Positions 5,648 through 26,671 of a DNA stretch of 27,148 nt are shown here, in pieces. Within the stretch, counting starts at the first letter, position 1. Every line of letters starts with the position of its first letter. A program made the translations under genes and the position numbers. Below the pieces are notes generated by a model, which was not told the DNA's origin, searched no databases, and worked only from the letters and a program-made list of their open reading frames with translations. Where the stretch lies: positions 1 to 27,148 of the forward strand of contig JANMUC010000435.1 of the NCBI GenBank assembly GCA_031391225.1, in the 5' to 3' direction. This stretch comes from Deinococcales bacterium. GTDB lineage: Bacteria > Deinococcota > Deinococci > Deinococcales > JAAFIG01.

Positions 5648-5705
5648 GGGTGAACACAGTTTTGAAAATAAGACGCACCTGACGGGCATTTTCGCAGGTT
5701 CACCC
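5648..5705. repeat. Nested hairpin: outer stem GGGTGAAC/GTTCACCC enclosing a 37-nt module (5659-5695) homologous to 26618-26653
   Basis: Direct inspection; inner stem GAAAAT/ATTTTC. Confidence 0.75.
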
Positions 5706-5729
5706 CTGCAGATTCCGGGCAATTCAAGG

Positions 5730-5735
5730 TAAACT
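5730..5735 (+). promoter_or_regulatory. -10 box TAAACT of putative leaderless recG promoter
   Basis: TAAACT-gattt-GTG(5741). Confidence 0.5.
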
Positions 5736-5740
5736 GATTT

Positions 5741-8083
5741 GTGCCAACCCGTGATGAACTGCGCGAACGACTGATCAAACCCCTGGCTCGAGAACTTGCA
5801 ATGGGCTGTCAGAACCGTGTGGTCACGGCGGGACTCGAGGCGTTGTTGAACAACGTCGCCCAACCGTTTCCGAAGGTACGGGAAGTGCTGGATGGTTACG
5901 GCATCATGAGCCAGACCGAGCGCGAAGAAAACCTTAAAACCGCGATTGCGCTGCTCGAGGCAGAACAAAAACCAGTCATCAATACCAAACCTGCGCCAAG
6001 CAAAAAACTCGAACTTCCACGGCTCGAGCGCACGACCTTGACACCAGATTCAGAAATTACACGGTTGCCGCTTGCACCCAGCGCACCCAAAAAACTGGCA
6101 CGACTTGGCATTAAAACCTTGCGCGACATGTTTCACAATTATCCCAGACGTTACGAAGACCGCCGACGACTGCCAGGATTTCACACCATCGAAGACGGCG
6201 CTCGAGTGACCGTGGTCGGTGCGGTGACGGACAAAACCCGTCACTCGCCTCGCAAAGGCATGTTGATTTTGAAGGCAAACTTGCGCGATGAATTTGGCAA
6301 CATGCTGTCCGCAACTTGGTTCAATCAACCTTGGGTCGAAGGGCAATTAAAAGAGGGCAACCGCCTGATTATCACGGGCAAAGCCAAACGTTTCGGGCGC
6401 AAACTCGAGCTTGCCGTCGAATATTTTGAGAACGATGATGAGGGGGGCGAGAGTTTCAGCACTGACCGCATCATCGCGGTGTATCACACTACCGAGGGTA
6501 TCTCGCAAGCCTTCATTCGCAAAGTTGCACGGCAATTGTTTGAAGCCCTACCCGAACCCGCAGATTTTCTCTCGAGCCAGCAACGCGGCATGTACAAGGT
6601 GATGCCTTACGTCCAAGCCTTACGTGAGGCGCACAATCCCAGCGAACTCGAGGAACTGGAAACTGCTTTAGAGCGCCTCAAATTTGACGAGTATTTGTTC
6701 CTCGAGCTTCGGATGCTCTTGCAGGGCGGCAGCAGTTTGGAAGGCAAACAATTTAGAGCACTCGACGAGCACATGCTCGAGTTTGAACGAATGCTGCCGT
6801 TCAAATTCACAAACGCTCAACGCCGCGCGATTCTCGAGATTGCGACTGACATGCGCGAACCCAAACAGATGGCGCGACTGATTCAAGGCGATGTCGGATC
6901 GGGCAAAACCGCCGTTGCCGCCAGTGCGCTTTATCTTGCGACTCGAGATGGTTTTCAAGGCGCGTTGATGGCTCCCACCGAAATTCTGGCGCGGCAGCAT
7001 TTCTCGAGTTTGACCAAATACTTGTACCCGCTCGGCGTGCGGGTGGAATTGCTGATTGGCGCGATGACGGGCAGAGAACGCATCGAGGCTCGAGAACGGA
7101 TCAAAAAAGGCGAGGTTGACGTGATCGTTGGCACGTCGGCACTGATTCAAGAAGGCGTCGAATTTGCACGGCTTGGCTTGGCTGTGGTGGACGAGGAGCA
7201 CCGCTTTGGGGTACAACAGCGCCGCGCCCTCCTCGCAAACCGTCCTGACGTGATCGTGATGAGCGCCACGCCCATTCCGCGCAGCCTTGCCCTGACCGCT
7301 TACGGTGACCTCGAGCTGACGACCATTGACGAACTGCCGCCAGGACGAACGCCAATTCAAACCAAACTTTTAATGGACACGCACCGCCGCCAAGCCTACA
7401 GCTTTGTCATGAAACAGATTCTCGAGGGACGCCAAGCTTTCGTGGTCGCGCCGCTGATCGAAGAATCCGAAAAAATGACCGAGATTCTGGCAGCCACGCA
7501 ACTCTCCGAAGACCTCAAACAGATTCTGCCAGACGCTCGAGTTGAACTTTTGCACGGCAAAATGCACCCCAGCGAAAAAGACGCGATCATGAACCGATTT
7601 CGCGCCCAAGAGTTCGATCTGCTCGTCAGTACCACCGTGATTGAAGTCGGCGTGGACGTTCCCAACGCCAGCATCATGGTGATCGAAAATGCCGAGCGCT
7701 TCGGGTTGTCGCAACTGCATCAACTTCGCGGGCGGGTTGGGCGCGGCGACAAGCAAAGTTATTGTGTGCTGATTGCGGGCGATCACAGCAAGAAAACCAG
7801 AGAACGTTTAAAAGTCATTGAAGGCACAACCGACGGTTTTAAAATTGCCGAAGCCGATTTGCGCCTTCGCGGACCAGGCGAGCTGCGCGGCACGCGGCAA
7901 AGCGGAATGCCAGATTTAAAACTGGGCGATTTGACCAGGGATACCGAAATTATTGAACAAGCCAGAAATCTTGCCAAAAGTATTCTGGAAGCAGACCCAA
8001 TGCTCGAGAAACCCGTGAATGCGCTGTTGAAAGTAGAATTGCAAGCTCGAGCGGAACAGGTTTCGATTCGAGATGTGATTTAA
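5741..8083 (+). CDS. recG: ATP-dependent DNA helicase RecG
   Basis: YPRRYED, wedge OB domain (WFNQPW), [80 protein letters not shown]. Confidence 0.98.
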
Positions 8084-8181
8084 GGATTTTGAGTACAATT
8101 TGAGTTTCAAAATGTGCTCTCAATACAGGAAAGTAAAATTTAATACGTGATTTCGCTGATGTGAAGTACGTTCAAAAACCT

Positions 8182-8187
8182 TAAACT
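8182..8187 (+). promoter_or_regulatory. -10 box TAAACT of putative leaderless promoter (overlaps CTCGAG)
   Basis: TAAACT-CGAGTC-ATG(8194). Confidence 0.6.
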
Positions 8188-8193
8188 CGAGTC

Positions 8194-8823
8194 ATGGGTT
8201 TTCGTGACGAGATTGAAACAATATTTTCTGGGAAGGCGTTTATTCGCCCATTATTTTACAATTACCGAGGAGGCTTGAAATTCGAGCTTTCCGAGGGTGA
8301 AACTGTGCTCGAGGCATTTTTGCTGGCGATGCAAAAGGCAACTGAAATTTGCTCAAGTATTTTTTCAAACTTTGAGCCAATGACGGTGTGTTTGCGAGTT
8401 CATACGTTTTCAAATCGCTTTTATCATCGTGTCAAACTCGCAAATCTAAAGGCGGCAGGCATCATTGTTCCCAAACACCGCGAAATTTGGCTCGAGCCAA
8501 TAAGTAAAGAAGGCAGGTTTGAAGAATCCGAACCTGAATGGTGGCTCAACGTGGCGTTTGAGGTTTCACCGAGACTGATTCAAAACTTTTTATGGTGTGC
8601 GCTGGCGCAAGATTTTGGTTTTATTCGTCCAAAAGCAGATTGCTTGGTTTATCTGTTCAATCTAAAATCTGAACTTATGGTCTGGGCTTACGATGACCGA
8701 GGTATGGATGTTGTTGGACCAAATAAAATCGCGCTCGAGAAACTGTACGATAAACACTCGAGTTACTTGCTCGATCATGACAGAGCCGTGATGGATGCCA
8801 CTTTTGCAAAATCTGATACTTGA
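8194..8823 (+). CDS. DUF3885-like protein
   Basis: LKFELS near the N-terminus and the YDDRGMDVV motif recalled for DUF3885. Confidence 0.7.
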   Translation: MGFRDEIETIFSGKAFIRPLFYNYRGGLKFELSEGETVLEAFLLAMQKATEICSSIFSNFEPMTVCLRVHTFSNRFYHRVKLANLKAAGIIVPKHREIWLEPISKEGRFEESEPEWWLNVAFEVSPRLIQNFLWCALAQDFGFIRPKADCLVYLFNLKSELMVWAYDDRGMDVVGPNKIALEKLYDKHSSYLLDHDRAVMDATFAKSDT

Positions 8824-8854
8824 AAATGCTGATGCAAGAAAAATCCCAAGACTT

Positions 8855-8860
8855 TAAACT
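8855..8860 (+). promoter_or_regulatory. -10 box TAAACT of putative leaderless promoter (overlaps CTCGAG)
   Basis: TAAACT-CGAGCC-ATG(8867). Confidence 0.6.
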
Positions 8861-8866
8861 CGAGCC

Positions 8867-9319
8867 ATGACCAACCCCATCATTCGTGCCGCTCGAGTTT
8901 CGGACTGGAATCAATTCCACCCATTCCTCGAGCATGACCGTCCAATTGATTCGCTCGAGAATGCGTTTTTGCGGTTTCAAAATCGGCTCGAGTCTCCATT
9001 GCACGGTGTTTTTGTGGCGGTATTGGATGCTGAAATTGTTGGCATTGCAATGGCGCACGAATGGGATCATTACATCATGAGCGGACGCAAGCAAATCCGA
9101 TTCTCGAGCTTGTACGTCAAACCTGAACATCAGAAAAAAGGCATCGGCAAGGCATTGTTCGAGGTGACTCGAGATTGGGCGAAAAGCATTGGCGCGACTT
9201 GGTTTGAATGGTACGCCAGCCAAAGTGCCAGTGGTTTTTACGAACGCTTGGGGTTTATCGGTGACGCCCAACCCGATCCTGAGCATCCTTATTTCGAGAT
9301 CGATTTCTCCAAATCCTAA
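8867..9319 (+). CDS. GNAT family N-acetyltransferase
   Basis: LYVKPEHQKKGIGKALF motif A; ASGFYERLGF motif B. Confidence 0.9.
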   Translation: MTNPIIRAARVSDWNQFHPFLEHDRPIDSLENAFLRFQNRLESPLHGVFVAVLDAEIVGIAMAHEWDHYIMSGRKQIRFSSLYVKPEHQKKGIGKALFEVTRDWAKSIGATWFEWYASQSASGFYERLGFIGDAQPDPEHPYFEIDFSKS

Positions 9320-9376
9320 CCGCATGTATCTCGAGCTTCACGTTCAATTCAATCTCGAGCGTTAGACTCAATTCTT

Positions 9377-10585
9377 GTGAAGACCTTTGCCGCATTGCAA
9401 ATTCCCGAATACCGTCGGTTTTGGATTTCGCAATGGTTTAGCCTGATCGGGTCTTGGTTGCAATCGAGCGCCCAAAGTTGGTTGGTGCTGGGTTTGTTCA
9501 CAGACCGTTCGACGGCAACAATTCAGCTTGGAATTCTGAATGCGATTCAGTGGTTGCCGTCCTTGGTGTTGTCACTTTTTGCTGGCGCGGTGCTTGATCG
9601 TTTCTCGAGAAAACACGTGTTGATCGTGACGCAAATTGTTTTGATGCTGATGGCTGTTTGCATGGGTTTGGTGGTTTACCTGAAAATTGCCAGCTTTGAA
9701 ATCGTGGCAATCATTGCTTTCATTTCGGGCTTGGCAAACGTGTTTGACATCATCGCCAGACAATCTTTAATTCCGCAACTCGTGCCAAAGCACCTGATGT
9801 CCAATGCTGTCGCGCTCGGCAGCCTGAGTTTTAATACGGCTCGAGTTTTGGGCGGCACAATCTTTGGTTTACTCGCCCCCATTTTTGGTTTGCACACGAT
9901 TTTCTGGTTGAATGCCGCATCATTTGTTGGCGTCATTATTGCCATCTCGAGCTTGAAATACCGTGCCGCCGAAGATTCTGGACAACACCGAATGCTTGAG
10001 GATATTCGGATTGGTTTGGGTTACGTCTGGTCGAACCGTGCGGTGCGCGACCCGATTGTGCTGCTGGGTTTGCTGTCATTGACGGTCATCAACTTTCCAG
10101 TCATCACGCCAGCCTATGCCAAATTTGCGCTCAACCTGAAGGAAACTGGCTTTGGTTTGCTCGGCTCGGCGTTCGGCATTGGTGCTGCCATCGGCGCGGT
10201 CTTCACCGCTTCACGCCCACCCGAGGCTCGAGTCAGGTTGATGACATTGGGTGCAATTGTTCTGTGCTTGGGCATGGGCAGTTTGTACTTTACTCCAACC
10301 CTCGAGCTTGCGGCGTTGGGTATTGGGTTGGCAGGCATGGGCATGATTTTGTTTACCGTCAGCGCCAACTCGACGGTGCAACTCAGCACGCCAGATTACT
10401 TGCGAGCGAGGGTGATGAGTGTCTACACACTGGTTTTTGCGGGTTTTGCACCGCCAGGAGCCTTATTTGTTGGGGCGTTGTTCGCCCGTTTTGGCACGCG
10501 GGAGGGCGTCTTGATTCTGGCAGTCCTGGGGTTGTGCTGCGTTGCCGCCATCCGTCCTCGAGTTCAGGCGCAACTGCAACGTTAA
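9377..10585 (+). CDS. MFS transporter (MFS_3/EntS-like efflux type)
   Basis: About 12 hydrophobic segments; GAVLDRFSRK motif A; P..LRARVMSVY in the second half. Confidence 0.9.
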   Translation: MKTFAALQIPEYRRFWISQWFSLIGSWLQSSAQSWLVLGLFTDRSTATIQLGILNAIQWLPSLVLSLFAGAVLDRFSRKHVLIVTQIVLMLMAVCMGLVVYLKIASFEIVAIIAFISGLANVFDIIARQSLIPQLVPKHLMSNAVALGSLSFNTARVLGGTIFGLLAPIFGLHTIFWLNAASFVGVIIAISSLKYRAAEDSGQHRMLEDIRIGLGYVWSNRAVRDPIVLLGLLSLTVINFPVITPAYAKFALNLKETGFGLLGSAFGIGAAIGAVFTASRPPEARVRLMTLGAIVLCLGMGSLYFTPTLELAALGIGLAGMGMILFTVSANSTVQLSTPDYLRARVMSVYTLVFAGFAPPGALFVGALFARFGTREGVLILAVLGLCCVAAIRPRVQAQLQR

Positions 10586-10588
10586 CAC

Positions 10589-11575
10589 TCAGGACTTCTT
10601 TTTAAACAACTTTTCCAAAAGACCTTTCTTCGGTTGTGGTTTGGCAAAAGATTTCAGTTCGGGCAGCGGTTCGGTGCGCATGGCAGCCCGTCCAAGTCCA
10701 GGGGTTGAAGGGACTGGATTAGCGGCGGGTACCTCGAGTACGGGTGCAATCGTATTGCGGTCTAAATTTCTGACCCGCTGAACGGTATGATGCCCAACTC
10801 GATTCAAGAAGGCGTTAAAAACTTCATGAATGTCTCGAGCGCTCGGACGGGCGGTCGGTTCTTTTGCCAGACTGCGATCAATCAGTTTGGCAATCTCTGG
10901 GTCAATTTCGCGGTGCAACGCCCGAATGGATGGCGCGAATTTGACCAAATGCGCGTTCTGAACCTCTTCGTACGTCTCGCCAGTAAAAGGACGAGCGCCA
11001 GTCACCAATTGAAACGCCATGACTCCAAGGCTGTAAACATCGGATTTGCTCGAGCTGCGTTCGCCCCGAAACACTTCAGGAGCCATGTAAAATGGACTGC
11101 CCGCCAGCAAACCAGGGTGCGCCTCGCTCGAGGCAGCCCCGAAATCTGCCAGGTACGCCCGTCCATCTTCGAGGTAGACATTGCTGGGTTTGACATCCTG
11201 GTGAATGACTTTTTTGAAATGCGCGTAATCCAAAGCGTCAGCAATGTCGGCAATCACCCTAAAGGCTTCACCCAGCGATTTGGGTGGCTCTTCAAGCGCA
11301 CCCTCTTTGAAATACTGAATTGCCAAGTGCGCATCGTCACCAAAAGGCACTCCAGAGAAAAAATGAATGATCTGCGGATGGTTCAGGCTCTTTAACATCA
11401 GCACTTCATTTGAAAACATTTTACCAAGGGTTGGATCATCAAAAATACCAGGCTTGGGAACTTTTAAAGCCACAGCACGGTTCTTTTGATCTCGAGCCAA
11501 GTACACGGTTGCCGTTCGTCCAGAACCAATCTGGATTTGAATCCGGTACCCTGGAATGTTCACTTCTGAAGTCAC
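10589..11575 (-). CDS. Ser/Thr protein kinase (non-RD, HQD catalytic loop), C-terminal amphipathic basic tail
   Basis: GSGRTATVY, VALK, IHQDVKPSN, DFG, GSPFYMAPE, DVYSLG; ends KKGLLEKLFKKKS. Confidence 0.9.
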   Translation of the reverse strand: MTSEVNIPGYRIQIQIGSGRTATVYLARDQKNRAVALKVPKPGIFDDPTLGKMFSNEVLMLKSLNHPQIIHFFSGVPFGDDAHLAIQYFKEGALEEPPKSLGEAFRVIADIADALDYAHFKKVIHQDVKPSNVYLEDGRAYLADFGAASSEAHPGLLAGSPFYMAPEVFRGERSSSKSDVYSLGVMAFQLVTGARPFTGETYEEVQNAHLVKFAPSIRALHREIDPEIAKLIDRSLAKEPTARPSARDIHEVFNAFLNRVGHHTVQRVRNLDRNTIAPVLEVPAANPVPSTPGLGRAAMRTEPLPELKSFAKPQPKKGLLEKLFKKKS

Positions 11576-11581
11576 CCTTTG

Positions 11582-11587
11582 ATTCTA
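11582..11587 (-). promoter_or_regulatory. -10 box TAGAAT of putative leaderless kinase promoter
   Basis: Minus strand TAGAAT-caaagg-GTG(11575). Confidence 0.6.
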
Positions 11588-11740
11588 ACTTGTTTCTGGA
11601 AAACCAACCAGGAAATTTGCACAACTTTAGAAACTCGGTTTCATCGTAGACGCCAGAAATGACTGGTAAAATTTGAAACTCGAGCAAACCAATGCTTAGG
11701 TGCAAAGCTTTGGAAACCAGGTTTTACGCTCGAGTTCCAC

Positions 11741-11769
11741 TTGACCAAAGGCTGCCACTCTGATAGCCT
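11741..11769 (+). promoter_or_regulatory. Sigma70-type promoter for tRNA-Pro
   Basis: TTGACC (11741-46), 17-nt spacer, extended -10 TGa-TAGCCT (11764-69), about 20 nt before the tRNA. Confidence 0.6.
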
Positions 11770-11789
11770 TCCTAAGCCAGCACTTGATT

Positions 11790-11866
11790 CGGGGTGTAGC
11801 GCAGCCTGGTAGCGCACTTGACTGGGGGTCAAGTGGTCGTGAGTTCAAATCTCGCCACCCCGACCA
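11790..11866 (+). tRNA. tRNA-Pro(GGG)
   Basis: 77-nt cloverleaf: acceptor CGGGGTG/CACCCCG, D arm GCGC/GCGC, anticodon stem CTTGA/TCAAG with loop CT-GGG-GG, T loop TTCAAAT, encoded ACCA end. Confidence 0.98.
11822..11866 (+). repeat. Left attachment-site direct repeat (45 bp, tRNA 3' half)
   Basis: CTGGGGGTCAAGTGGTCGTGAGTTCAAATCTCGCCACCCCGACCA, identical to 19919-19963. Confidence 0.97.
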
Positions 11867-11872
11867 TGTACT

Positions 11873-11907
11873 ACACGCATTCTTTCGAGGGTGCGTGTGC
11901 TTTTTTT
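11873..11907 (+). terminator. Element-supplied intrinsic terminator downstream of the restored tRNA
   Basis: ACACGCATTCT-TTCG-AGGGTGCGTGT (11-bp stem with 2 G:U, UUCG loop) followed by GC and T7. Confidence 0.85.
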
Positions 11908-11953
11908 GCGTCTTTGACACCTTATGCGGGGTTTTGCCCGTCTCGAGGTGCTC

Positions 11954-12487
11954 ATGGGTAGCGCTTTAACTTCTGCCATTCAATCGGCTGACTTTCCCGC
12001 ACTCCTCGAGCGTCACTTCCCCAACTCGCTAGGGCGCGGTTATCGCGTTCGTCCTGTCTGGCGTTCCGAATCTCGAGACACAGACGCAGCTCTAAAACGC
12101 TTTTCTGACGGCGCTTGGATTCTGACCGACTTTGCCCTGTCGAAGTCTTGGGATGCCTACCAATTCTTGACTGACCTCTGCTCCTACAGCCCTCGAGAGG
12201 CGGCGCGGTTGTTGATTCTCGAGGCTGGCATTCAAGACACGCCCAAAGCCCTCACAACTCCAAGCACGGGGATTCTCGAGCCGTTGGTGTTGGCAGAACT
12301 TCCCGAGTGCATCACCGACTTCTTGAGGTTAAACGCCTTGTACTTCGGTGGTCGTCTTCTCCTCCGCCCGGATGGAAGTGTCTCACCAGAAGCTCGAGCG
12401 TACTTCCTCGAGCCTTTAGCCGATTGGATGGCTTCCTGTGCTGCCAATTTTGGCTTAGGAACACTCAGAAATCACGGTGCAACATGA
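11954..12487 (+). CDS. Hypothetical protein with N-terminal primase zinc-binding-domain (CHC2)-like pattern lacking the Zn ligands
   Basis: RBS GAGGTG before ATG 11954; [13 protein letters not shown]...W.LTDF....DAYQFL....[13 protein letters not shown] parallels the DnaG N-terminal domain. Confidence 0.65.
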
Positions 12488-12693
12488 AGCAAAAACCACG
12501 CGCCGCCGTTTACTTGATACCCCTGCCCTTAAATCAAACCAAGACCAGAACAGCGTTTTTAACTCGAGTCAGGTTTTCGAGTGCTGGTTTTGCCCTTGCC
12601 GTAGCTCGCGTGAATGTTCACAGCAATAAACTTGAATCGTTCTCGAGTCGGGTGCTGTTTGGCGCTGGTCGGGTGGGTGCAACATGGGCATAA
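12484..12693 (+). CDS. Small hypothetical protein (69 aa), possibly overlapping the replication origin
   Basis: ATGA overlap with the upstream stop; overlaps rep start by 10 nt; same GGTGCAACATG start context as rep. Confidence 0.4.
   Translation: MKQKPRAAVYLIPLPLNQTKTRTAFLTRVRFSSAGFALAVARVNVHSNKLESFSSRVLFGAGRVGATWA
12511..12519 (+). other. Candidate double-strand origin nick site TACTTG^ATA
   Basis: Matches the CTTG^ATA nick motif of phiX174/pC194-type HUH initiators; lies about 165 bp upstream of rep. Confidence 0.45.
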
Positions 12694-13754
12694 AACGGTC
12701 TTTGGTGATCGCCTCGACTCAACGCATAGTCATTGCGTCGGCTGGCAACACCTGGCGCGAAGTTCACAGCGCAAACCGCAAACGCCGAAAACTGAACGGA
12801 CGTTTGCATGGTGGGATTCGTTCACTCTTTAAAAGCCTTGGGCGCGGTACAAACAAGCGGTGCAGCTTCTTAACCCTGACCGTTGACCCGCAAGACCAAA
12901 CACCCCAGCAATGTTATGAGCGCATGACCAAAGCTTGGAACGCCCTGGCGACTTGGTGGCGCAAAAGCTACCCAAGCATGAAGTTTTTTCGGGTGGTTGA
13001 ATTGCACTCGAGCGGCTTCCCTCACTTTCACGTCTTGCTGATTCGCGCCCCATTCATTGGAGTGCAAAGCATTTCTAACCAGTGGAAAAACTTGTTAGGG
13101 CAATCTCGAGCCGTGGTGCATATCCGTGCTGTCAAAGGGACTGAACACGCGGTTAGGTACTGTACAAAGTACCTTTTGAAACAATCCGAGGTCATTACCA
13201 AGCTCGAGGATGAAGCCAAAGAAGCTTTTAAGACTCGAGTTGAACACGCCCTCGAGTGGCAAGCGGCGGCAGATGAAGCGCGAAAACTTGGACTCGAGGA
13301 CGATGCGCGGCGCTGTGAAACCGAAGCCCGAAGAGTTGGCGGTGAACGTGATGAGGTGCGGATTGCTGCCCTGATCTGTGAGTTAAAGAAAGCTAGTGAC
13401 GAAGGCAACATTGACAGCGTGGCATATTTCGAGGACAGGCTTGAGCGGGTTAAAGAAGAGATTCGGGAAGCTCGAGCAGAGAAAAATGCAGGGGCGAATG
13501 CTGACAGCAAGAACATTGCGGATGCGTCTTGGTGGGGTCGTCGGGTTCGCCCGTGGAGTGCGTCGCGTGGCTTGCTCGAGAAGGAAGAGAGCAAGGGGGA
13601 AGCGTGGTGGGATAACGTTTCGGTTGTGCCGTTCATCACGCCAACACAGGCGGCAATGGTTGCGGCAAGTCTTGGTTTTGAGACTGAAAAATTCAATCCT
13701 GACATTGGTTTTTATGACTTTCGGGCAAATGCTCCGAGTGTTATTCGAGCGTAA
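12684..13754 (+). CDS. rep: Rolling-circle replication initiator, HUH endonuclease with two active-site tyrosines
   Basis: Motif I FLTLT (aa 62-66), motif II ELHSSGFPHFHVLL, motif III YCTKY (Y159/Y163), distal R.W..SRGLL. Confidence 0.92.
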   Translation: MGIKRSLVIASTQRIVIASAGNTWREVHSANRKRRKLNGRLHGGIRSLFKSLGRGTNKRCSFLTLTVDPQDQTPQQCYERMTKAWNALATWWRKSYPSMKFFRVVELHSSGFPHFHVLLIRAPFIGVQSISNQWKNLLGQSRAVVHIRAVKGTEHAVRYCTKYLLKQSEVITKLEDEAKEAFKTRVEHALEWQAAADEARKLGLEDDARRCETEARRVGGERDEVRIAALICELKKASDEGNIDSVAYFEDRLERVKEEIREARAEKNAGANADSKNIADASWWGRRVRPWSASRGLLEKEESKGEAWWDNVSVVPFITPTQAAMVAASLGFETEKFNPDIGFYDFRANAPSVIRA

Positions 13755-13765
13755 AAAGGCATTCC

Positions 13766-13831
13766 ATGAAAAAATCTAAGACCGTTCAGCCTAGTTGCGC
13801 CTGGTGTACTTGTACCAAGGTCGTGCTATGA
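13766..13831 (+). CDS. Putative 21-aa peptide MKKSKTVQPSCAWCTCTKVVL
   Basis: ATG 11 nt after the rep stop, preceded by AAAAAGG; stop overlaps the next ATG (ATGA). Below the ORF-track size cutoff. Confidence 0.3.
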   Translation: MKKSKTVQPSCAWCTCTKVVL

Positions 13832-18662: not shown

Positions 18663-19824
18663 ACCAAAACTACGCAATGCCAAAGGCGCGGGTGGCAGTC
18701 CATTTCTTCGCAAAGATGGGCGTTGGACTGCCTCGGTCACAATTGGCTACCGTGACGGCAAACAAATCAAAAAATGGGTGTACGGCTCGAGTCAGCGCGA
18801 GGTCGTAGAACAGCTTCGAGCATTGCATGGTCAAGCCTCGAGTGCCATTTTACCGAACCGTGAAAACTTGAATCTTGGTATCTGGCTTGATCGCTTTTCT
18901 GATGCTCGAGGGCGTGACCTCAAGCCCAGCACTCGGGATATGTACAAACACTATGTCAGACATTGGAAACGCGAGTTAGGCGACACACCTTTAGCCCGAG
19001 TCAATCCTTTGATGGTTCGGGCGGCGCTCGTGCGTTTTTCTGATGCCAACTTGGGTGACTCTTACCGCAAAGCGCTTTACAACTTTATCAACGCTGCTTT
19101 GAATGAAGCTGTAAAGCTCGACATACTCGAGGTGAATCCTGTTGTCAAAGTGGACAGACCAAAGGTAAAAGTCACCAACACTCGAGGTGCTTGGACTGAA
19201 GAGGAAGCCCGTGCCTTTCTCGAGGTTGCGGCGGGTCATGCGCTCGAGCCGTTGTTCTCGCTTTGTTTGGTGTGTGGCTTGCGAATTGGTGAGGCGCTGG
19301 CGTTGCACTGGAACGCTTTGCAGGGTGATTCTTTGAACATTGATTTCAGCCTAAACCGTTCCAAGGATGGCGGCATGTTCACCACTCCGAAATGGGGTTC
19401 ATTTGGTTCATTACCCTTGCATACAGAAACCCTTGCCATGCTCGAGCAGCACCGCCTTAAATTTGAGAAACGCAAAACCCTAGCAGTTGAAGCGGGTTTA
19501 TGGAAAGAACACGCTTTGATGTTCCCTTCAGAAGTTGGAACGCCCCTTAATTATCGTAACGTTTTACGTGTCTTTGACGGTTTCGTTTTGAAAGCTGGCA
19601 TCCCGCGTTATGGTGGTTCTCACACCTTCAGGCGTACTTTTGTCACTTTGGCAATGGGGCAACTCGAGCCGAAGGAAGTCCAAGAAATTGTCAGGCATAA
19701 AAGTTCAGTTATCACGATGGATGTCTATGCACGAGTTCGTAGTTCAAGACGCAAGAAACTTGGTTTAAGCCTCACGTCTTTGGTGACTCTGAATGACACC
19801 TCAGAAGTCGGTGAACGCCAATGA
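18652..19824 (+). CDS. int: Tyrosine recombinase / integrase
   Basis: N-terminal arm-binding-like region (RKDGRW.A.V), SAM-like core, catalytic GLRIGE, SHTFRR, VRH, TMDVYA; ends 94 bp before the right att repeat. Confidence 0.97.
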   Translation: MARKPKLRNAKGAGGSPFLRKDGRWTASVTIGYRDGKQIKKWVYGSSQREVVEQLRALHGQASSAILPNRENLNLGIWLDRFSDARGRDLKPSTRDMYKHYVRHWKRELGDTPLARVNPLMVRAALVRFSDANLGDSYRKALYNFINAALNEAVKLDILEVNPVVKVDRPKVKVTNTRGAWTEEEARAFLEVAAGHALEPLFSLCLVCGLRIGEALALHWNALQGDSLNIDFSLNRSKDGGMFTTPKWGSFGSLPLHTETLAMLEQHRLKFEKRKTLAVEAGLWKEHALMFPSEVGTPLNYRNVLRVFDGFVLKAGIPRYGGSHTFRRTFVTLAMGQLEPKEVQEIVRHKSSVITMDVYARVRSSRRKKLGLSLTSLVTLNDTSEVGERQ

Positions 19825-19918
19825 TCGGTAAAACTCAGTACCTCTGCAATCATCAAAATATGCTGACTGCACGGCATTTTCTCGAGTTTGGCGTTTTCTC
19901 TTTTGTTGTTGGAATTCG

Positions 19919-19963
19919 CTGGGGGTCAAGTGGTCGTGAGTTCAAATCTCGCCACCCCGACCA
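19919..19963 (+). repeat. Right attachment-site direct repeat (displaced tRNA-Pro 3' half)
   Basis: Identical to 11822-11866. Confidence 0.97.
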
Positions 19964-19968
19964 AGAGA

Positions 19969-20000
19969 AAACCCCGTTTTGAACGGGGTTTCTTTATTTT
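19969..20000 (+). terminator. Intrinsic terminator, probably the original host tRNA-Pro terminator
   Basis: AAACCCCGTT-TTG-AACGGGGTTT then CTTTATTTT, immediately after the right repeat. Confidence 0.8.
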
Positions 20001-20160
20001 TCGAGCGGCAAGCACACCAAATTATTAATACCATGTACCTGGTGTGTGACCAAGGTCCAAGCAAACGGGTACAAAATCTGCAAAGAATCGCCTTCTCGAG
20101 CCTTACAACTTTGTAGCCCAGATTGTTATTGTTTGCCCTCAAACCAACCAACATAAGATC

Positions 20161-21195
20161 ATGCAAACAACACAACAACCTGTCGCTCGAGGGAACAACC
20201 CCTCTCCGCTGTCCAGTAGCAGCGCCATGTGGTTGGGTATTCTGTTCAGCACTGCTTTTACCGCCTTCATCTGGGCGCTCGGTAACCGACTTTCCAGCGT
20301 TCCTCATGCCCCAGATACGGGCGCAGCCCATTACTACTGGAAACTGATTGACCCGACTTTTATTTCTCGAGCCTCGGCTTGGGGTTTGTACTTGGCGCAT
20401 CAATTTGTTTCTTGGGGACTTATTTTTTACGCTCAAACCAGGGTCAAAAAGTACACCAACGGTTTGCACCCAGTCAACATTTGGGCACTGGGCGCGAACG
20501 CTGCATTTATTGTGCTGCACTTGTTGCAAACCCATGTTTGGTATGACGGTCTGGCGCAAGACGTCTCGATTTTCTCGAGCCAAGGCAGTGTGATTGTGTT
20601 GTTGGTATTTATTTTAATCATGGAAAATCCGCGCCGTGGTTTGTTCTTTGGCATCAAAGCACCGCTTGCCAAAGACGCGGTGGGTTTTGTCAGAAAGTAT
20701 CACGGTTATTTCTTTTCCTGGGCAGCCATTTACACGTTTTGGTATCACCCGATGGAAGCCACCCCAGGGCATTTGATCGGCTTTTTTTACATGTTTTTCT
20801 TGATGCTGCAAGGTAGTTTGTTTTTCACCCGCATTCATACCAACAAATACTGGACGTTTGTGCAAGAATTCTTGGTGCTGATTCACGGCACATTGGTCGC
20901 CGTGTTTCAAGGCGCGGGCTTGTGGTCCATGTTCTTGTTTGGCTTTGGCGGCATTTTCATCATCACGCAAATGTACGGGCTTGGACTCTCGAGAATCGCG
21001 CGTTTTGCCCTGATTGGCGTGTACGCCCTGGCAGTCACTTTCGTTTACAGCGGACGTGGTTTGGGTAAACTCAACGAGATCATTCGGATTCCAGCCATTG
21101 ATTACTTGCTGGTGTTTGCCTTAACGGGTTTGATTGCAGGTCCAATGTGGCTCTACAAACGTTTTGCTGTCAAAGCCCCGGCTTTGCCGAGCTAA
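20161..21195 (+). CDS. Multi-pass membrane protein of unknown function
   Basis: About 9-10 hydrophobic segments with several intramembrane or interface His residues (HQF, HLLQTH, YHGY, WYHP, GHL, IHG). Confidence 0.8.
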   Translation: MQTTQQPVARGNNPSPLSSSSAMWLGILFSTAFTAFIWALGNRLSSVPHAPDTGAAHYYWKLIDPTFISRASAWGLYLAHQFVSWGLIFYAQTRVKKYTNGLHPVNIWALGANAAFIVLHLLQTHVWYDGLAQDVSIFSSQGSVIVLLVFILIMENPRRGLFFGIKAPLAKDAVGFVRKYHGYFFSWAAIYTFWYHPMEATPGHLIGFFYMFFLMLQGSLFFTRIHTNKYWTFVQEFLVLIHGTLVAVFQGAGLWSMFLFGFGGIFIITQMYGLGLSRIARFALIGVYALAVTFVYSGRGLGKLNEIIRIPAIDYLLVFALTGLIAGPMWLYKRFAVKAPALPS

Positions 21196-21211
21196 CGTTT
21201 GAACCTCGAGT

Positions 21212-22048
21212 TTACTTGACCGCACCTTGGGTTAAGCCCCGAATCAATTGTCTCGAGAAAATAATGTACAACACCAGAATTGGCAGCACCGCCAGCGTTA
21301 GGGCGGCAAGCACGGCGTTCCAATCGCTGATGAATTGCCCCAAAAACACTTGAGCGCCCAAAATCACTGTTTTGGTGGACTCGAGCGGCGCAAGAATTAA
21401 CGGAAACCAGAGGTCGTTCCAGACTGGAATCATGTTGAAAATCGCAACCGTGCCAAGCGCTGGACGCACCAGAGGCAGCACCAGCCAGAAGACGCGGTAT
21501 TCGCTCGCGCCGTCAATGCGGGCGGCATCTTTGAGTTCTTTGGGAATGGTCTTAAAGAAGGCAGTCAGCACAAAGGTTGCCAGCGGAATGCCGCTGGCGA
21601 CGTAGACCAAAATCAGGGCGAACAGCGTGTTGTTGATGCCGAGTGCGACCATCATTTTGAGTAAACTGACCGTGCCAAGCCGAATCGGAACCATAATGCC
21701 GATTGCCAAGTAAATGCCCAAGAGCGGATTGCCACGAAAATCGTATTCGGCAAGGGCAAACGAAGCCATCGCGCTCGAGCTTAAAATCAAAACCAGTGAA
21801 ATGATCGTGACGATCAAAGAATTCAGAAAATACTGTTCAAAATGGGCGCTCGAGAAAACGGTTTGATAACCGACCAGATCAAAGGTGCTGGGCGTTGGTA
21901 GCGCCAGTGGCGAACCAAAAATAGCAAGGCGGGCTTTGGTCGAGTTCATGACGATCAGTAATGTTGGAAATAATGCAATGAAGGTGTAAATCAGTAGCAC
22001 GGTATGAACGCCAGCGTGGGAGAAAAATGTTTTGGTTTTGGGATTCAT
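21212..22048 (-). CDS. Carbohydrate ABC transporter permease (MalG-like)
   Basis: EAA loop IPKELKDAARIDGASE; WNDLWFPL; six TM segments. Confidence 0.95.
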   Translation of the reverse strand: MNPKTKTFFSHAGVHTVLLIYTFIALFPTLLIVMNSTKARLAIFGSPLALPTPSTFDLVGYQTVFSSAHFEQYFLNSLIVTIISLVLILSSSAMASFALAEYDFRGNPLLGIYLAIGIMVPIRLGTVSLLKMMVALGINNTLFALILVYVASGIPLATFVLTAFFKTIPKELKDAARIDGASEYRVFWLVLPLVRPALGTVAIFNMIPVWNDLWFPLILAPLESTKTVILGAQVFLGQFISDWNAVLAALTLAVLPILVLYIIFSRQLIRGLTQGAVK

Positions 22049-23001
22049 AATTCCACGTTCTCGATTCGACGTTGAAAACCAAACAAGTAAATCAAAACCC
22101 CAATCAAAATAATCACCAGCATGATTCCAGCCACGGCAGAACCCAAGAACGGATCACCGCCTTGAAGTTGAAAACCAAAGAAAGTACGGTAAAAAAAAGT
22201 TCCCAGCAAATCAGTCGAGAAACTCGGACCTGCCAGCGCACCTTGGGCGCTATAAACCAGATCAAACGCGTTGAAATTTCCAACAAAAGTCAGCACGCCA
22301 ACAATGCCAGCCGTCGGCAGCAACAACGGAAATTGAATTTTCCAAAAAATTGTCCAAGCGTTCGCGCCGTCCACCCGTGCCGCCTCGAGAAACTCTTCAG
22401 GGATGCGAATAATACTTGCCAGAAAAAGCATCATTGGAATGCCGACGTACTGCCAAACCGAAATCAGCGACAGGGTAATCAATGCCGAATTTTCGATGCC
22501 CAGATTCATTAAATTAAGCAGTGGAATGTTGCTCGAGATACCCCAGAGCGGGCTGAGAATCAACTTCCAAGCGAAACCGACAATCACCACCGAAAGCACC
22601 GTTGGCGTGAAGATTAGGGTGCGATACACAACGCTGCCACGAATTTTCAAACTGAGCAAATACGCCAGCAGCAAACCCACCGGATTTTGCACGCACATGT
22701 GAATCACAAAAAAAATCAGATTGTTCTTTAACGCATTCCACAACCGACTCGAGAGGGTCGGATCGGTCAACAACTCGCGGTAATTCTGAAAGCCCACCCA
22801 ATGCACAATATTTTTTTCATCGCTCGAGAATAACGACAAACGTAAACTGTCCAGCATTGGGAAAATCATAAAAGCCGTGTAAATCAGCACGGCTGGGAAA
22901 AGAAAAACCAGAATGTGAACTGGGAATTTCTGGATGAATTTCCGCAGAAAAACCAAAATGCGATTGGGGAAATTTTGATTTGCTTGCTGTTTCGAAATCA
23001 T
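22045..23001 (-). CDS. Carbohydrate ABC transporter permease (MalF-like)
   Basis: VGFQNY..L..D; EAA loop IPEEFLEAARVDGAN; FNAFDLVY. Confidence 0.95.
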   Translation of the reverse strand: MISKQQANQNFPNRILVFLRKFIQKFPVHILVFLFPAVLIYTAFMIFPMLDSLRLSLFSSDEKNIVHWVGFQNYRELLTDPTLSSRLWNALKNNLIFFVIHMCVQNPVGLLLAYLLSLKIRGSVVYRTLIFTPTVLSVVIVGFAWKLILSPLWGISSNIPLLNLMNLGIENSALITLSLISVWQYVGIPMMLFLASIIRIPEEFLEAARVDGANAWTIFWKIQFPLLLPTAGIVGVLTFVGNFNAFDLVYSAQGALAGPSFSTDLLGTFFYRTFFGFQLQGGDPFLGSAVAGIMLVIILIGVLIYLFGFQRRIENVEL

Positions 23002-23070
23002 ATCGTCTTCCTCAAGCCATAGTTAAAGCGTGGAGGGGAATAAAATTCGTCTCTCGAGCTGGGAATTAAA

Positions 23071-23116
23071 CTCCCTTCTCCCGATGTTGGGAGAAGGGCT
23101 GGGGATGAGGGTAGAC
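23071..23116 (+). repeat. REP-like palindromic element (46 bp)
   Basis: CCCTTCTCCC-gatgtt-GGGAGAAGGG followed by CTGGGGATGAGGGTAGAC; inverted copy at 26590-26671. Confidence 0.8.
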
Positions 23117-23122
23117 CAAGTT

Positions 23123-24385
23123 TTACTTCTTGGGTTTGTACCAAGCCTCGAGGTTCTTTTGCACCATATCGGCAGCAGCTTTTGGTGTCATTGTACCGTT
23201 CAGAACGCCAGCGCTGGCAGCCCAAAGGTCATTTTCGTTGTTGAGCTTTTCATTGCGTGACAAAATCTGGTAGCTCGAGCGAATTGTGCTCTCACAGTCA
23301 TCACGCCAACCCACGAATTCTTGTGCCAGTGGGTCTTTGAGCTTGATCTTGGCTTTGGAGAGCGAGAAGAAACCAGGCAGCGCATTGGCGTAAATCTCGG
23401 CAAATTCTGGGGTGGTCATCCACTCGAGGAACTTCTTGGCGGATTCTTTGTTCTTGCTGTTGGCGTTCAAGCCCGTGGCAATGTCGGTGTGGTCGCTGAT
23501 GTAGCACTTTTTCGCGCCCGCTGGAAGTGGTGGTTTGAACGCGCCGAGTTCAAATTTGGCGTTGGCTCGGAAGCCCGAAATTTCCCATGAACCGCTGGGG
23601 TAAATCGCACCACGTCCCAACGAAAACAGGTTTTGGGCGTCTGGATACGAAACGCTTTGATAACCTTGCTCGAGGTACGGCGTCCATTTTGCCAGGGCTT
23701 GGAAGGTGCGTAAAAAGCCGCCCGTGTTGTACTTGGCTTTGCCTGCAATCAAGCCCAAACGACCTGTCTCGCCTTGCCAGTAGTTGGGTCCAATGTTTTG
23801 AAAGCCAACTGTGGCACTTTCCCATTGGTCTTTTGTGCCCATGACCAGTGGTGCGTACTTGCCGTTTTTCTTGACGGTTGCGAGCAGTTTGTAAAACTCA
23901 GCTTCAGTTTTTGGTTCGGTCAATTTGAGTTCGGCAAAGATCGCTTTGTTGTAGATAAAGCCGTGAATCACACTTGCCATTGGCACACAAAAAGTATTTT
24001 TACCATCATCGGTTTGCCAAGCACTTTTGGCGACATTCGAGAAATTGCTCATGCCAGCAATGTCATTCAGGCTTGCCAGGTTTCCTTTGTTGTACAACTC
24101 GAGCGACTTGTCAAACGGACGACAGGTAATCAGATCGCCTGCGCTGCCACCTTGAAGCTTGGCGTCCAGGGCGCTGTTGTACTCGGCTGGAGCACTTGGC
24201 GCGAAGGTCACTTCAATGTCAGGAAATTTTTTATTGAACGCTGGAATAATCTCGTTCTGCCAGATTTTCAGGTCGTCGTTGCGCCAAGATTCAATACTGA
24301 TCTTGGTTTTACCCTGACCGAACGCGAGTCCCGCAAGTGCCACGCCACCTGCGAGTAAAAGGAAAACCGATGCCGATTTCTTCAT
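23123..24385 (-). CDS. Sugar ABC transporter substrate-binding protein (family 1)
   Basis: RBS AAGGAGG; signal peptide without lipobox Cys; AGDLITCRPFD, FIYNK.IF..L, GAIYPSGSWE. Confidence 0.93.
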   Translation of the reverse strand: MKKSASVFLLLAGGVALAGLAFGQGKTKISIESWRNDDLKIWQNEIIPAFNKKFPDIEVTFAPSAPAEYNSALDAKLQGGSAGDLITCRPFDKSLELYNKGNLASLNDIAGMSNFSNVAKSAWQTDDGKNTFCVPMASVIHGFIYNKAIFAELKLTEPKTEAEFYKLLATVKKNGKYAPLVMGTKDQWESATVGFQNIGPNYWQGETGRLGLIAGKAKYNTGGFLRTFQALAKWTPYLEQGYQSVSYPDAQNLFSLGRGAIYPSGSWEISGFRANAKFELGAFKPPLPAGAKKCYISDHTDIATGLNANSKNKESAKKFLEWMTTPEFAEIYANALPGFFSLSKAKIKLKDPLAQEFVGWRDDCESTIRSSYQILSRNEKLNNENDLWAASAGVLNGTMTPKAAADMVQKNLEAWYKPKK

Positions 24386-24512
24386 CCCGTGCCTCCTTGT
24401 GGGCGTGTTCCGCCCCGTTCTGATGTTGAGAATATCAGCCTATCTCGAGGTATGCTGAAAACGCAAATCAAATTGTAATATCTGAATAACTTCGTTTTTG
24501 ACTGGAGGGATT

Positions 24513-25499
24513 GTGCGCGTTGGAATCGTCGGGACTGGTTCAATGGGGTCTGTACACGCCCAAGCCTGGCTTCAGGCGGGTGTAGAGCTTTCTGGTGTGA
24601 TCTCAGGGCATCTCGAGCACGCCCAAACCTTCGCCCAAAAACATGAGATCCAAGCTTTCTCGAGGTTGGAGGAAATGCTCGAGGTGGTGGATGTGCTCGA
24701 TATTTGCGCCCCAACGCATTTGCACCGCGATATGACCGAAGCTGCCGCCAAGGCTGGCAAGCACGTGATCTGCGAAAAACCGATTGCGTTGACCCTCAAA
24801 GATTCAAAAGCCATGATCGAAGTTTGCTCGAGTCAGAACGTGCGGTTGTTTATCGCCCAAGTCGTCAGGTTTTTCCCGCAGTATCGTGCCGCTCAAGAAA
24901 TTCTTGCCAGTGGTCAACTCGGAAACCTTGGCGTGTTGCGCCTGAAACGCGCTGGGTATCAACCAAGCTTGAACTGGTTTTTAGACGAAACAAAATCTGG
25001 CGGCATGGTCATGGATTTGATGATTCACGATTTCGATTACGCCCTCTGGATTGGTGGCAAAGTATCTCGAGTTTATGCCACCTCCGCTCGAGCCTCTAAC
25101 CCAACCTCGAGCGGAGATTACGCCCTTGTAACCCTGGGTTTTGAATCTGGCGCGATGGCACAAATTGAGGGTGGTTGGTGTTACCCAAAAGGTACGTTTC
25201 GTACCAGCCTGGACATTGCTGGCAGCCAGGGTCTTATCGAATGGCATTCGGACAACTCGAGTACCATCAAAAGTTTCCTCGAGCCTCAAAATTCGGGTGT
25301 TGGTGCGGTTGGGATTCCTAGTTCAGTGCTGACCGAAGACCCGTACACCACTCAGATCAAACATTTCAAACATGCCATCACCACGAACACGCCCTTTGAT
25401 GTCACGCCCGAAGATGCCCTGGCAGCTTTAGAAATCGCCCTCGCCGCTCGAGAATCCCTGAAATCAGGTCGCGCCGTGCATTTGGGAAGCTCGAGATGA
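24513..25499 (+). CDS. Gfo/Idh/MocA family oxidoreductase
   Basis: RBS GGAGG before GTG 24513; VGIVGTGSMG Rossmann fold, PTHLH, CEKP, DLMIHD.D. Confidence 0.93.
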   Translation: MRVGIVGTGSMGSVHAQAWLQAGVELSGVISGHLEHAQTFAQKHEIQAFSRLEEMLEVVDVLDICAPTHLHRDMTEAAAKAGKHVICEKPIALTLKDSKAMIEVCSSQNVRLFIAQVVRFFPQYRAAQEILASGQLGNLGVLRLKRAGYQPSLNWFLDETKSGGMVMDLMIHDFDYALWIGGKVSRVYATSARASNPTSSGDYALVTLGFESGAMAQIEGGWCYPKGTFRTSLDIAGSQGLIEWHSDNSSTIKSFLEPQNSGVGAVGIPSSVLTEDPYTTQIKHFKHAITTNTPFDVTPEDALAALEIALAARESLKSGRAVHLGSSR

Positions 25500-26497
25500 G
25501 GGTCGGTATCATGAGCTTCGCGCACCTTCACGCCGAAGGGTATATCGGTTTGCTGCGCTCAATGCCCAACGTTGAAGTTATCGGATTCTCTGACCTTGAC
25601 CCAACTCGAGGCATGAAAATAGCGCAACAATACTCGAGCCACTGGTATCCAAGCCACGAAACGCTGCTCGAGCAAGACCTTGACGCCGTGATTGTCTGCA
25701 CCGAAAACGCCACGCGCCGCGAAGCCGTCGAAATGGCGGCTCGAGCGGGCTGTCATATTTTGTGCGAGAAACCGATTTCGGTCACGCTCGAGGATGCCCT
25801 GGCAATGCGTGATGCGGTCACAAGCTCTGGCGTGAATTTCATGACCGCCTTCCCAATGCGTTTTGACCCGAGCCTCCAAATTTTGCGCGAACGCATTCAA
25901 GCTGGCGATCTTGGGCGCGTCTACGGCATGAACGGCATCAACCATTCAGAAATTCCCAAAGCCCACCGCGCCTGGTTCGCAGACCGTGAACTCGCTGGTG
26001 GCGGCGCGGTCATGGATCACACCGTTCACCTGACCGACCTCTACCGCTGGATTTTCGACACCGAAATTCTCGAGGTGTACGCCGAAGTCAGCAACCCGTT
26101 TTACCCAGACGTGGACGTGGACACTGCTGGAATAATCACCCTCAAACTTGAGAATGGCATGTTCGCAGGGATTGATTGCAGTTGGTCGCGCCCAACCACT
26201 TACCCACGCTGGGGACACCTGAAACTCGAGGTGGTGGGCGAACGCGGGTCGCTCGAGATTGATGCTTTCGCGCAACATTTAACCGTCACCAGCAGCAAAC
26301 CAGTCATCAGAAACCCAAACTGGCACGGTTGGGGCAGCGATCCGAACAAAGCCATGCTGACAGAATTTTTTGCCAGCATTACCGAGGCTCGAGAACCCAG
26401 CGTGACCTGGAAAGATGGGTTTGAGGCTTTAAGGGTGGCGTTGACCTGTTATGAGTCAGCGGGGATTGGGCAACCTGTGAGGCTCGAGAATTTGTAG
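25496..26497 (+). CDS. Gfo/Idh/MocA family oxidoreductase
   Basis: ATGA coupling; CEKP, GGGAVMDHTVHLTD. Confidence 0.92.
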   Translation: MRVGIMSFAHLHAEGYIGLLRSMPNVEVIGFSDLDPTRGMKIAQQYSSHWYPSHETLLEQDLDAVIVCTENATRREAVEMAARAGCHILCEKPISVTLEDALAMRDAVTSSGVNFMTAFPMRFDPSLQILRERIQAGDLGRVYGMNGINHSEIPKAHRAWFADRELAGGGAVMDHTVHLTDLYRWIFDTEILEVYAEVSNPFYPDVDVDTAGIITLKLENGMFAGIDCSWSRPTTYPRWGHLKLEVVGERGSLEIDAFAQHLTVTSSKPVIRNPNWHGWGSDPNKAMLTEFFASITEAREPSVTWKDGFEALRVALTCYESAGIGQPVRLENL

Positions 26498-26589
26498 TTT
26501 CAAGAATCAAAAAAGAGTAGGGACAAGCCCATACACTCCGACTCAATCATATTTTCTATTTCTCAAACACAAAAATCTGCAATTGCCCT

Positions 26590-26671
26590 GTCTACCCTCA
26601 TCCCCAACCCTTCTCCCGTCTTGACCATAAAACGCACCTGCGGGCATGGTCGCAACATCAGGAGAAGGGAG
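26590..26671 (-). repeat. Second copy of the 46-bp REP-like element (44/46 identical) interrupted by a 36-nt hairpin module (26618-26653)
   Basis: Direct comparison with the reverse complement of 23071-23116. Confidence 0.85.

Follow-up and report, generated by a model that had tools for sequence, protein, structure and literature searches.

What is a hairpin of 36-37 nt, whose stem changes in pairs and whose loop hardly changes at all, doing inside two palindromes of the same contig? The question is raised by contig JANMUC010000435.1 of assembly GCA_031391225.1 (C426 and G000 below; 848 contigs, 5.17 Mb, 50% G+C), the 27,148 nt of which are the window analysed here. RecG places the window in a lineage of uncultured Deinococcales known from stream and sediment metagenome-assembled genomes (MAGs), in which it has five congeners with 95-97% RecG identity. 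An earlier note, made from the letters of the window, had described the two hairpins (copies A and B) and offered two readings, (a) an ultra-small non-autonomous mobile unit, mechanistically compatible with HUH transposases, or (b) a structured RNA or protein-binding motif. We show here that gain and loss of such units involve exact, strand-oriented DNA segments and create no target duplication, and that the units favour hairpin loops, including their own. The reading that we favour, with a probability of about 0.6, is that of a mini-transposon of single-stranded DNA that is strand-specific and non-autonomous and relies on a putative enzyme acting in trans.

Anatomy and landing sites of the unit family

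Both copies lie where the earlier note had placed them, on the same strand (Table 1), and their arms indeed differ by two compensatory pairs (GAAAAT/ATTTTC versus GACCAT/ATGGTC). The core common to both, ACGCACCTG(A)CGGGCAT, has two matches in the window, and 0 of 100 shuffles contain it. A pattern search of the whole assembly revealed that they are members of a large family and not its sole copies: fuzzy matching of the core returned hundreds of hits, and recursive excision of innermost units yielded at least 298 strict units of 36-41 nt in 152 contigs, with 246 innermost units, 50 hosts at depth 2 and 2 at depth 3. The looser signature of the 5' half is found 916 times in the assembly against 185 times in a reversed-sequence control, which suggests that the true number is about 700. 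The consensus reads N(T>G>C)-TCTTG-N5-[AARAYGCACC-T-n(1-3)-CGGGC]-N5'-CGC and is made up of a head, (N)TCTTG, a stem of 5-6 bp that is free in sequence, an invariant loop of 17-19 nt and a 3' CGC. TCTTG and CGC are nearly invariant (T at -2 in 202 and C at -1 in 204 of 205); further subfamilies have longer internal parts (e.g. TTAAAGCAGCACC...GGGCTT) and imperfect stems. Copy A has a rare stem, AAAAT, and a TCTTG head mutated to TTTTG. Copy B belongs to the commonest stem class, ACCAT, and has at least 12 paralogous composites in which an identical unit occupies the identical host position.

The closing helix, proposed earlier from the two copies, is real and covaries. Counted without any stem filter, 145 of 161 fixed-geometry matches have perfect 5-bp Watson-Crick arms, with two to three different Watson-Crick pairs at each of stem positions 2-5 and 15 distinct perfect stems, against a mean of 1.8 after arm shuffling. 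Likewise, in an alignment of 31 units picked by head and loop alone (alignment A6), both sides have changed at 5 of the 6 pairs of the outer helix, 48 cells are doubly changed where 15.4 are expected (a value reached in 0 of 500 shuffles), and 92% of cells pair, versus 31-48% with the partners slid. The inner 4-bp helix (GC-A-CC/GGGC) never varies in this alignment and therefore speaks neither for nor against that structure. The isolated hairpins fold weakly as DNA (-3.3 kcal/mol for A and -5.8 kcal/mol for B, z of -0.5 and -1.3); the structure rests on covariation and not on folding energy. G-T pairs are nearly absent (3 of 805 stem positions in the 161 matches, 4 of 186 cells in A6), and this near-absence of wobble fits a DNA hairpin rather than an RNA. 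There are also chimeric units, in which the 5' and 3' arms come from different stem classes (e.g. C622:6789-6825, C110:2037-2073, C104:5034-5070). They probably result from a deletion or recombination event that linked the conserved loop of one unit to that of a nested or adjacent one.

The earlier proposal that the units insert into hairpin loops captures their preference, but stems of other repeats and plain coding sequence are targeted as well. Among the 298 units, 91 follow CACC or CACCT within the apical loop of a second unit, 79 directly adjoin a unit, and the remaining 128 are found in other places, for the most part at positions that recur in other repeat families (Table 1). A nested unit and its host point the same way in every case (54:0), neighbouring units share a strand in 49 cases and are on opposite strands in 10, and arrays are spacer-less, with units placed head-to-tail or nested like Russian dolls; the central hairpin loop of a host resembling a miniature inverted-repeat transposable element (MITE) takes up from one to about nine of them, 98-420 nt in total (e.g. 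C712:3485-3775, C801, C273). The 81 non-redundant targets share no fixed 4-5 nt sequence; on the 5' side the sole preference is for C (at -1 in 54, at -2 in 47), and on the 3' side T is preferred (at +1 in 52, at +2 in 41). Units all end with C and mostly begin with T, so that C^T is the usual reading at either junction and at the target, and the two C^T sites of each unit (the CACC^T loop and the CGC^T end) may suffice for both nesting and spacer-less arrays.

Empty and filled sites

The two palindromes that hold copies A and B had been called unrelated; each is itself a member of a repeat family. Copy A sits inside the 5-nt loop of a repetitive extragenic palindromic (REP) hairpin of the GTAG type, the head of which is changed to GCAGGGG, and copy B sits at the stem/loop junction of REP-A, a hairpin with a C-rich tail of the BoxC/triplex-motif type that is linked to DUF559 genes. 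As the earlier note had seen, the 46-mer left once copy B is cut out (26590-26617 fused to 26654-26671) matches the reverse complement of 23071-23116 at 44 of 46 positions. Excision of copy A gives GGGTGAAC-ACAAG-GTTCACCC, exactly the empty allele of two related genomes. Neither copy is bordered by a target duplication, the boundary ambiguity being 0 nt for A and 1 nt (C) for B.

Alignment with relatives identified empty orthologous sites at four loci (copy A, copy B, a tRNA-Lys gene and a rhaD-like gene), all four without target duplication. The empty-site alleles of the copy A hairpin, which the earlier note had wanted to see, are found upstream of recG in L001 and L004, and the site is filled in the window, L002, L003 and L005 (alignment A1). 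The filled copies carry clean compensatory stems (ACAAA/TTTGT, ACAAT/ATTGT and AAAAT/ATTTT) and a loop that is the same but for one base, and their flanks diverge; the insertion point differs by 1 nt between L002/L003 and the window/L005. The recG tree places the empty L004 at the base and the empty L001 inside the filled clade (support 89/95 and 99/97). Because L001 is nested in this clade and the insertion point shifts, the tree suggests gain, re-insertion and one scarless loss of copy A; it is a single-gene tree, and recombination between strains could also explain it. At the copy B site, the orthologous REP-A hairpin of G004 is empty and a unit stands instead in a neighbouring small hairpin (TTGGCGACCATGCCCGCAAGGTGCGTTTTATGGTCAAGAACGAAAGAGGG), itself empty in the window, so that presence and absence are reciprocal. 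This part of the window (26525-26830, beyond the 3' end of a gene that stops at 26497) is pieced together from repeats found at dozens of other loci in the same genome and in congeners, and synteny with relatives breaks off at the stop codon of that gene.

Genes are also interrupted. A 36-nt unit lies in the anticodon loop of a tRNA-Lys(UUU) gene (C844:12290-12401; ARAGORN intron mode, i(32,36)), with a junction ambiguity of up to 3 nt (CTT), and the orthologous gene is intact in all four congeners that hold the tRNA cluster (alignment A2). The interrupted gene is probably dispensable because a second tRNA-Lys(UUU) gene, 50/76 identical to it, exists at C325. The cluster (C844:12100-13500) is dense, with tRNAs for Met, Phe, Gln, Glu, Lys, Gly and more, and in intron mode ARAGORN also calls a tRNA-Gln(ttg) with a 154-nt insert there (C844:13192-13437) and several other 'introns' elsewhere. 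In the rhaD-like gene of C460, an aldolase-II/short-chain-dehydrogenase fusion, a 36-nt unit occupies the linker, in frame and antisense, and is absent from 5/5 congeners. A WHD/AAA-ATPase gene of C602 likewise holds a 36-nt unit in frame; its matches in four congeners are 36 nt shorter, a difference in match length that points to an empty site in them. Each of the four insertions examined in coding sequence has a length divisible by 3 and leaves the frame intact (39 nt in C256; 36 nt in C460, in C602 and in a gene of C488 discussed below). In G017, two units interrupt the defunct tnpA of an IS605-type element. Together this is the pattern expected from selection acting on random DNA insertions. 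Contigs from two other samples contain a unit at 100% identity and are broken at its 3' end; neither an empty allele nor a joint was seen in the assembled contigs of other samples.

Table 1. Units, host repeats and associated genes. Unprefixed positions refer to the window; C-prefixed positions refer to other contigs of the assembly.
Feature	Position	Strand	Sequence or remark
Copy A, 37-nt unit	5659..5695	+	G-TTTTG-AAAAT-AAGACGCACCTGACGGGC-ATTTT-CGC
Copy B, 36-nt unit	26618..26653	+	G-TCTTG-ACCAT-AAAACGCACCTGCGGGC-ATGGT-CGC
Host of copy A, GTAG-type REP hairpin (REP-C)	5648..5711	-	consensus GTAGGGGTGAACCTTGTGTTCACCC on minus strand
Host of copy B, REP-A	26590..26671	+	GTCTACCCTCATCCCCAACCCTTCTCCC-AACATC-GGGAGAAGGGAG
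REP-A copy	23071..23116	-	uninterrupted (empty)
Second small hairpin	26709..26733	+	CCTTCTCCCGCCATGCGGGAGAAGG; empty in window; G004 counterpart filled, opposite orientation
REP-A as host			three hot spots; unit orientation fixed relative to REP-A
REP-B as host			GTAGGGGCGCTGC^TTGCTGCGCCC; loop
REP-C as host			GTAGGGGTGAACC^TTGTGTTCACCC; loop; units in either orientation
Further hairpin family as host			CCACCTCCCCTAC type
MITE-like element as host			ends TACAGCGGTTTTCATATCCGTTGACGCG...CGCGTCAAACATTGTGCAAGGTGCTGTA; about 45 copies; central hairpin loop
REP-associated tyrosine transposase (RAYT)-like genes with internal REPs	C532:4327-4950; C712:5846-6358; C488:8326-8911		loci L082, L083; orthologues L117-L119, L123
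REP-A-bracketed DUF559 genes	C741:5710-6021; C741:10714-11028; C729:686-997; C738:16022-16318		

What might move the units

A mini-transposon of this kind would require a trans-acting enzyme that recognises the invariant loop, which might form a small inner helix, together with the head, on folded single-stranded DNA. The enzyme would cut both ends and join the piece into exposed single-stranded C^T sites of the same strand, with seamless excision, in a process that would resemble the 'peel and paste' of IS200/IS605 insertion sequences or the processing of REPs by RAYTs. Stem complementarity could be kept through selection for folding or through repair of the folded intermediate. The leading candidate would be an HUH Y1 protein, which is the most economical choice, and a Vsr-like DUF559 nuclease would be a weaker second. 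Of reading (a), then, the ultra-small non-autonomous mobile unit without duplication is strongly supported, given the hundreds of copies, the self-nesting, the empty sites at four loci by alignment and at a fifth by match length, and the fresh tRNA insertion; its HUH enzyme stays putative, given that Y1 genes are not unit-flanked and do not track the units, and that contig GC skew, a weak proxy, gave no strand bias.

The Y1 genes (PF01797) of G000 comprise one IS200-type tnpA (C545), the flanks of which contain no unit-like hairpin, and four RAYT-like genes (C257, C532, C712, C488). The C257 type has REP-B on both sides, which is the classical RAYT layout. In the remaining three, GTAG-type REP hairpins or doublets are embedded in frame in the coding sequence itself, between the HUH and Tyr motifs, and in C488 a 36-nt unit is lodged in the loop of the internal REP while the open reading frame (ORF) stays open. 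In orthologues, the GTAGGGGATGGT motif is tandemly expanded to (VGDG)n. The C532 gene lies between hsdM-like and hsdS-like genes of a type I restriction-modification operon, an arrangement kept in two genera (G012/G016: L117, L118). As to the second candidate, G000 has eight DUF559 genes, of which four are bracketed by inverted REP-A pairs (Table 1) and three others have in common a different upstream hairpin, CCACCTCCCCTACCTTCGGCAGGGGAG. The link of DUF559 is thus to the host repeat REP-A, and the genes are not bracketed by the 37-nt unit.

Several observations weigh against enzyme-driven movement of the proposed kind. The earlier note had suggested looking for RAYT or TnpA genes near the units, and the outcome was negative: none of the four RAYT-like genes or their orthologues is flanked by units, GTAG-type (GTAGGGG) REPs being found around or within them instead, and no gene is physically linked to the units in their own genome. 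A gene between matching 5' and 3' halves of a unit, as in an autonomous parent, was searched for and nothing convincing emerged. Across the family, Y1 genes do not track unit abundance, since G011 has four Y1 matches and no units, and G008 and G006 have units and no Y1 match (both are incomplete MAGs). IS200/IS605 elements are typically lagging-strand biased; unit orientation relative to the sign of contig GC skew is balanced (73:65), contig skew being a weak proxy for replication direction on the short contigs of a fragmented MAG. Some composites of unit and host probably spread by amplification of the host, so that not all copies are independent insertions. Finally, RAYTs cleave REPs as folded single strands, at a CT on either side of the hairpin and with the 5' tetranucleotide as guide (PMC8266576); the C^T junctions of the units match this, but the TCTT head does not, and under the published RAYT/IS608 guide model it would not be expected to select a CT cleavage site.

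A bolder idea, which we hold only tentatively, is that the units represent a new class of minimal transposon, a recognition loop closed by an arbitrary stem, served by an unrecognised single-strand DNA enzyme that is neither a canonical RAYT nor an IS200 TnpA and that finds exposed loops, including tRNA anticodon loops, by structure. If this were true, every cycle would include re-templating or repair of the stem in the folded intermediate, and the clean compensatory changes would be accounted for. Alternatively, no enzyme might be needed: replication template switching, or gene conversion between extruded hairpins via short C/T microhomology, could spread the units, with quasi-palindrome correction keeping their stems perfect. 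The junction ambiguity of up to 3 nt at some sites (CTT at the tRNA), the mostly hairpin targets, the clean double substitutions in the stems, the chimeric units and the failure to find a dedicated gene all agree with such a process. We nevertheless regard it as unlikely, because the boundaries are nucleotide-identical in very different targets, including the zero-microhomology copy A and plain coding sequence, because head and loop are conserved across genera, and because the 54:0 co-orientation and the apparently precise loss fit site-specific cleavage more easily.

Two further explanations are more distant. Reading (b) of the earlier note would make the unit primarily a functional structured motif (protein-binding, or an RNA acting as terminator, mRNA stabiliser or regulatory hairpin) under selection at each site, with dispersal secondary. 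The loop is invariant, stems are compensated even between orthologous copies while flanks diverge, unit clusters are mostly intergenic (162 of 184 lie outside long ORFs) and enriched at gene 3' ends (19 convergent versus 5 divergent gaps); yet this explanation fares poorly, and we consider it improbable, when one considers that 73 units are sense and 58 antisense to the upstream gene (a weak or absent bias), that G-U pairs are nearly absent and single hairpins weak, that units have inserted into a tRNA anticodon loop, coding sequences and a transposase gene, that close relatives do without the unit at the same site and that nests and arrays of up to about nine units display no obvious regulatory logic. 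Nor does any Rfam family match the units: with Rfam 15, only a tRNA reaches the gathering threshold in the window, and nothing credible appears at E<=10 around copy A. Protein recognition of the invariant loop would in any case belong to the mechanism of the favoured mini-transposon. It is highly improbable that movement is mediated by RNA, with a small hairpin RNA entering the exposed loops of other RNAs (repeat transcripts, or a tRNA cleaved in its anticodon loop) by ligation or reverse splicing before being copied into DNA. Strand-specific nesting, the absence of target duplication and the targeting of loops would be accounted for, including that of tRNA-Lys, where the insertion lies at or beside position 33/34, the cut site of known anticodon nucleases. 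However, the C460 unit is antisense to its gene, units occur in both orientations relative to transcription, G-U wobble is not tolerated, no link to a reverse transcriptase turned up, though none was sought, and 37 nt is to our knowledge too small for any known self-splicing RNA.

Familiar classes of element were also considered and rejected: a riboswitch or ribozyme (no Rfam match, both orientations, too small), a CRISPR repeat (the arrays are spacer-less and lack unique spacers) and a classical MITE (no target duplication at the four aligned empty-allele sites).

Known systems, distribution and genome setting

The closest published precedent is provided by the small dispersed repeats (SDR) of cyanobacteria, the comparison being one of descriptions and not of sequences. 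SDR1-8 of Nostoc punctiforme and relatives, reported by Elhai and colleagues in 2008, are said to be non-coding dispersed repeats of 21-27 nt, nested in one another and in other repeats or hairpins, with mobility deduced from orthologous presence and absence, and reportedly with no target duplication and no known enzyme. The units are similarly very small, non-coding, dispersed, nested and present or absent in relatives, and the hosts in both cases carry a hyper-abundant short palindrome (HIP1 in SDR hosts, CTCGAG here). They differ in their occurrence in Deinococcota and not cyanobacteria, in their size (36-41 nt versus 21-27 nt) and in their build, each unit being a single hairpin whose stem is free but covaries, whose 18-nt loop is invariant, and which nests specifically in its own apical loop. 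Rickettsia palindromic elements, of 100-150 bp, are tolerated in frame in protein genes and in RNA genes; the units too insert in frame into protein genes and into an RNA gene, and we know of no such element that nests in its own loops or forms spacer-less arrays.

With IS200/IS605 elements (IS608, and ISDra2 as a Deinococcus precedent), the units share strand specificity, absence of duplication, hairpin recognition and seamless excision, the last read for the units from a single-gene tree. These elements, however, have two distinct subterminal hairpins with guide tetranucleotides, a fixed 4-5 nt 5' target and a lagging-strand bias, whereas the units have a single hairpin and a mere C^T preference, show no such bias by the weak proxy used above, and occur inside an IS605-type tnpA as insertions and not at element ends. 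REP/REPIN-RAYT systems, or REPtrons (PMC3116915, PMC3333891, PMC8266576), resemble the units in that their hairpins of 20-40 nt bear a conserved tetranucleotide on the 5' side, number in the hundreds, lie mostly outside genes and cause no duplication; the units are likewise high-copy, mostly extragenic short palindromes. There are nevertheless key differences: (i), the unit head is TCTT(G) and not GTAG/GTGG, the GTAG-headed REPs of this genome being other families; (ii), the conserved part is the loop and not the stem; (iii), units are single, in direct tandem or nested and do not form the inverted doublets known as REPINs; (iv), no RAYT gene has cognate units on its flanks; and (v), units insert into REPs themselves, a tRNA and coding sequences. 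Repeat-hairpin loops as landing sites are not unprecedented: IS1397/ISKpn1 and the IS110-family ISPpu9/IS621 target REP loops (PMC3116915, PMC12288879), but these are full-size elements that encode their own transposase. Our literature searches found no description of this unit family, which is among the smallest mobile DNA units known in bacteria.

The distribution survey comprised 121 genomes of the order. The unit pattern occurs in 16 of the 18 other genomes of the window's own Deinococcales family, to which it is confined; a genome of the same genus as the window has 60-181 matches, one of g2 has 19-31 and one of g5 has 0-22, and G011, the one complete genome, has none. The 102 genomes of the order's other four families, Deinococcus-like ones included, gave single chance-level matches only, and a scan of viral contigs gave 0 matches. 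The invariant loop is kept across genera whose RecG proteins are only 71-82% identical, and this conservation implies a conserved recognition partner. An assembly artefact was rejected, as the family is present in independent MAGs from several studies.

If the mini-transposon reading holds, the unit ranks among the smallest pieces of mobile DNA for which recent movement is directly documented, in the form of lineage-specific insertions in a tRNA gene and two enzyme genes and an apparently scarless loss. It would extend very small mobile repeats from cyanobacteria to Deinococcota and show how nested and tandem repeat thickets are built. Because the anatomy of the unit is defined (head, free stem, invariant loop), the missing enzyme can be tested for biochemically with a 37-mer oligonucleotide. 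The units also fragment metagenome assemblies (68 contig ends bear the signature), add 12-residue inserts to proteins and interrupt RNA genes. Their co-occurrence with GTAG-type REPs and RAYTs, with DUF559-linked triplex-type repeats and with a 26-fold excess of CTCGAG makes this lineage a natural laboratory for single-strand and hairpin DNA transactions. CTCGAG itself occurs 33,079 times in the 5.17 Mb of the assembly, about 26 times expectation or about one per 156 bp. In recG loci (L001-L066), all parts of the uncultured Deinococcales family, the unit-free genus included, have 4.4-9 CTCGAG sites per kb, compared with about 1.5 for Trueperaceae MAGs and 0-0.24 for Deinococcus species.

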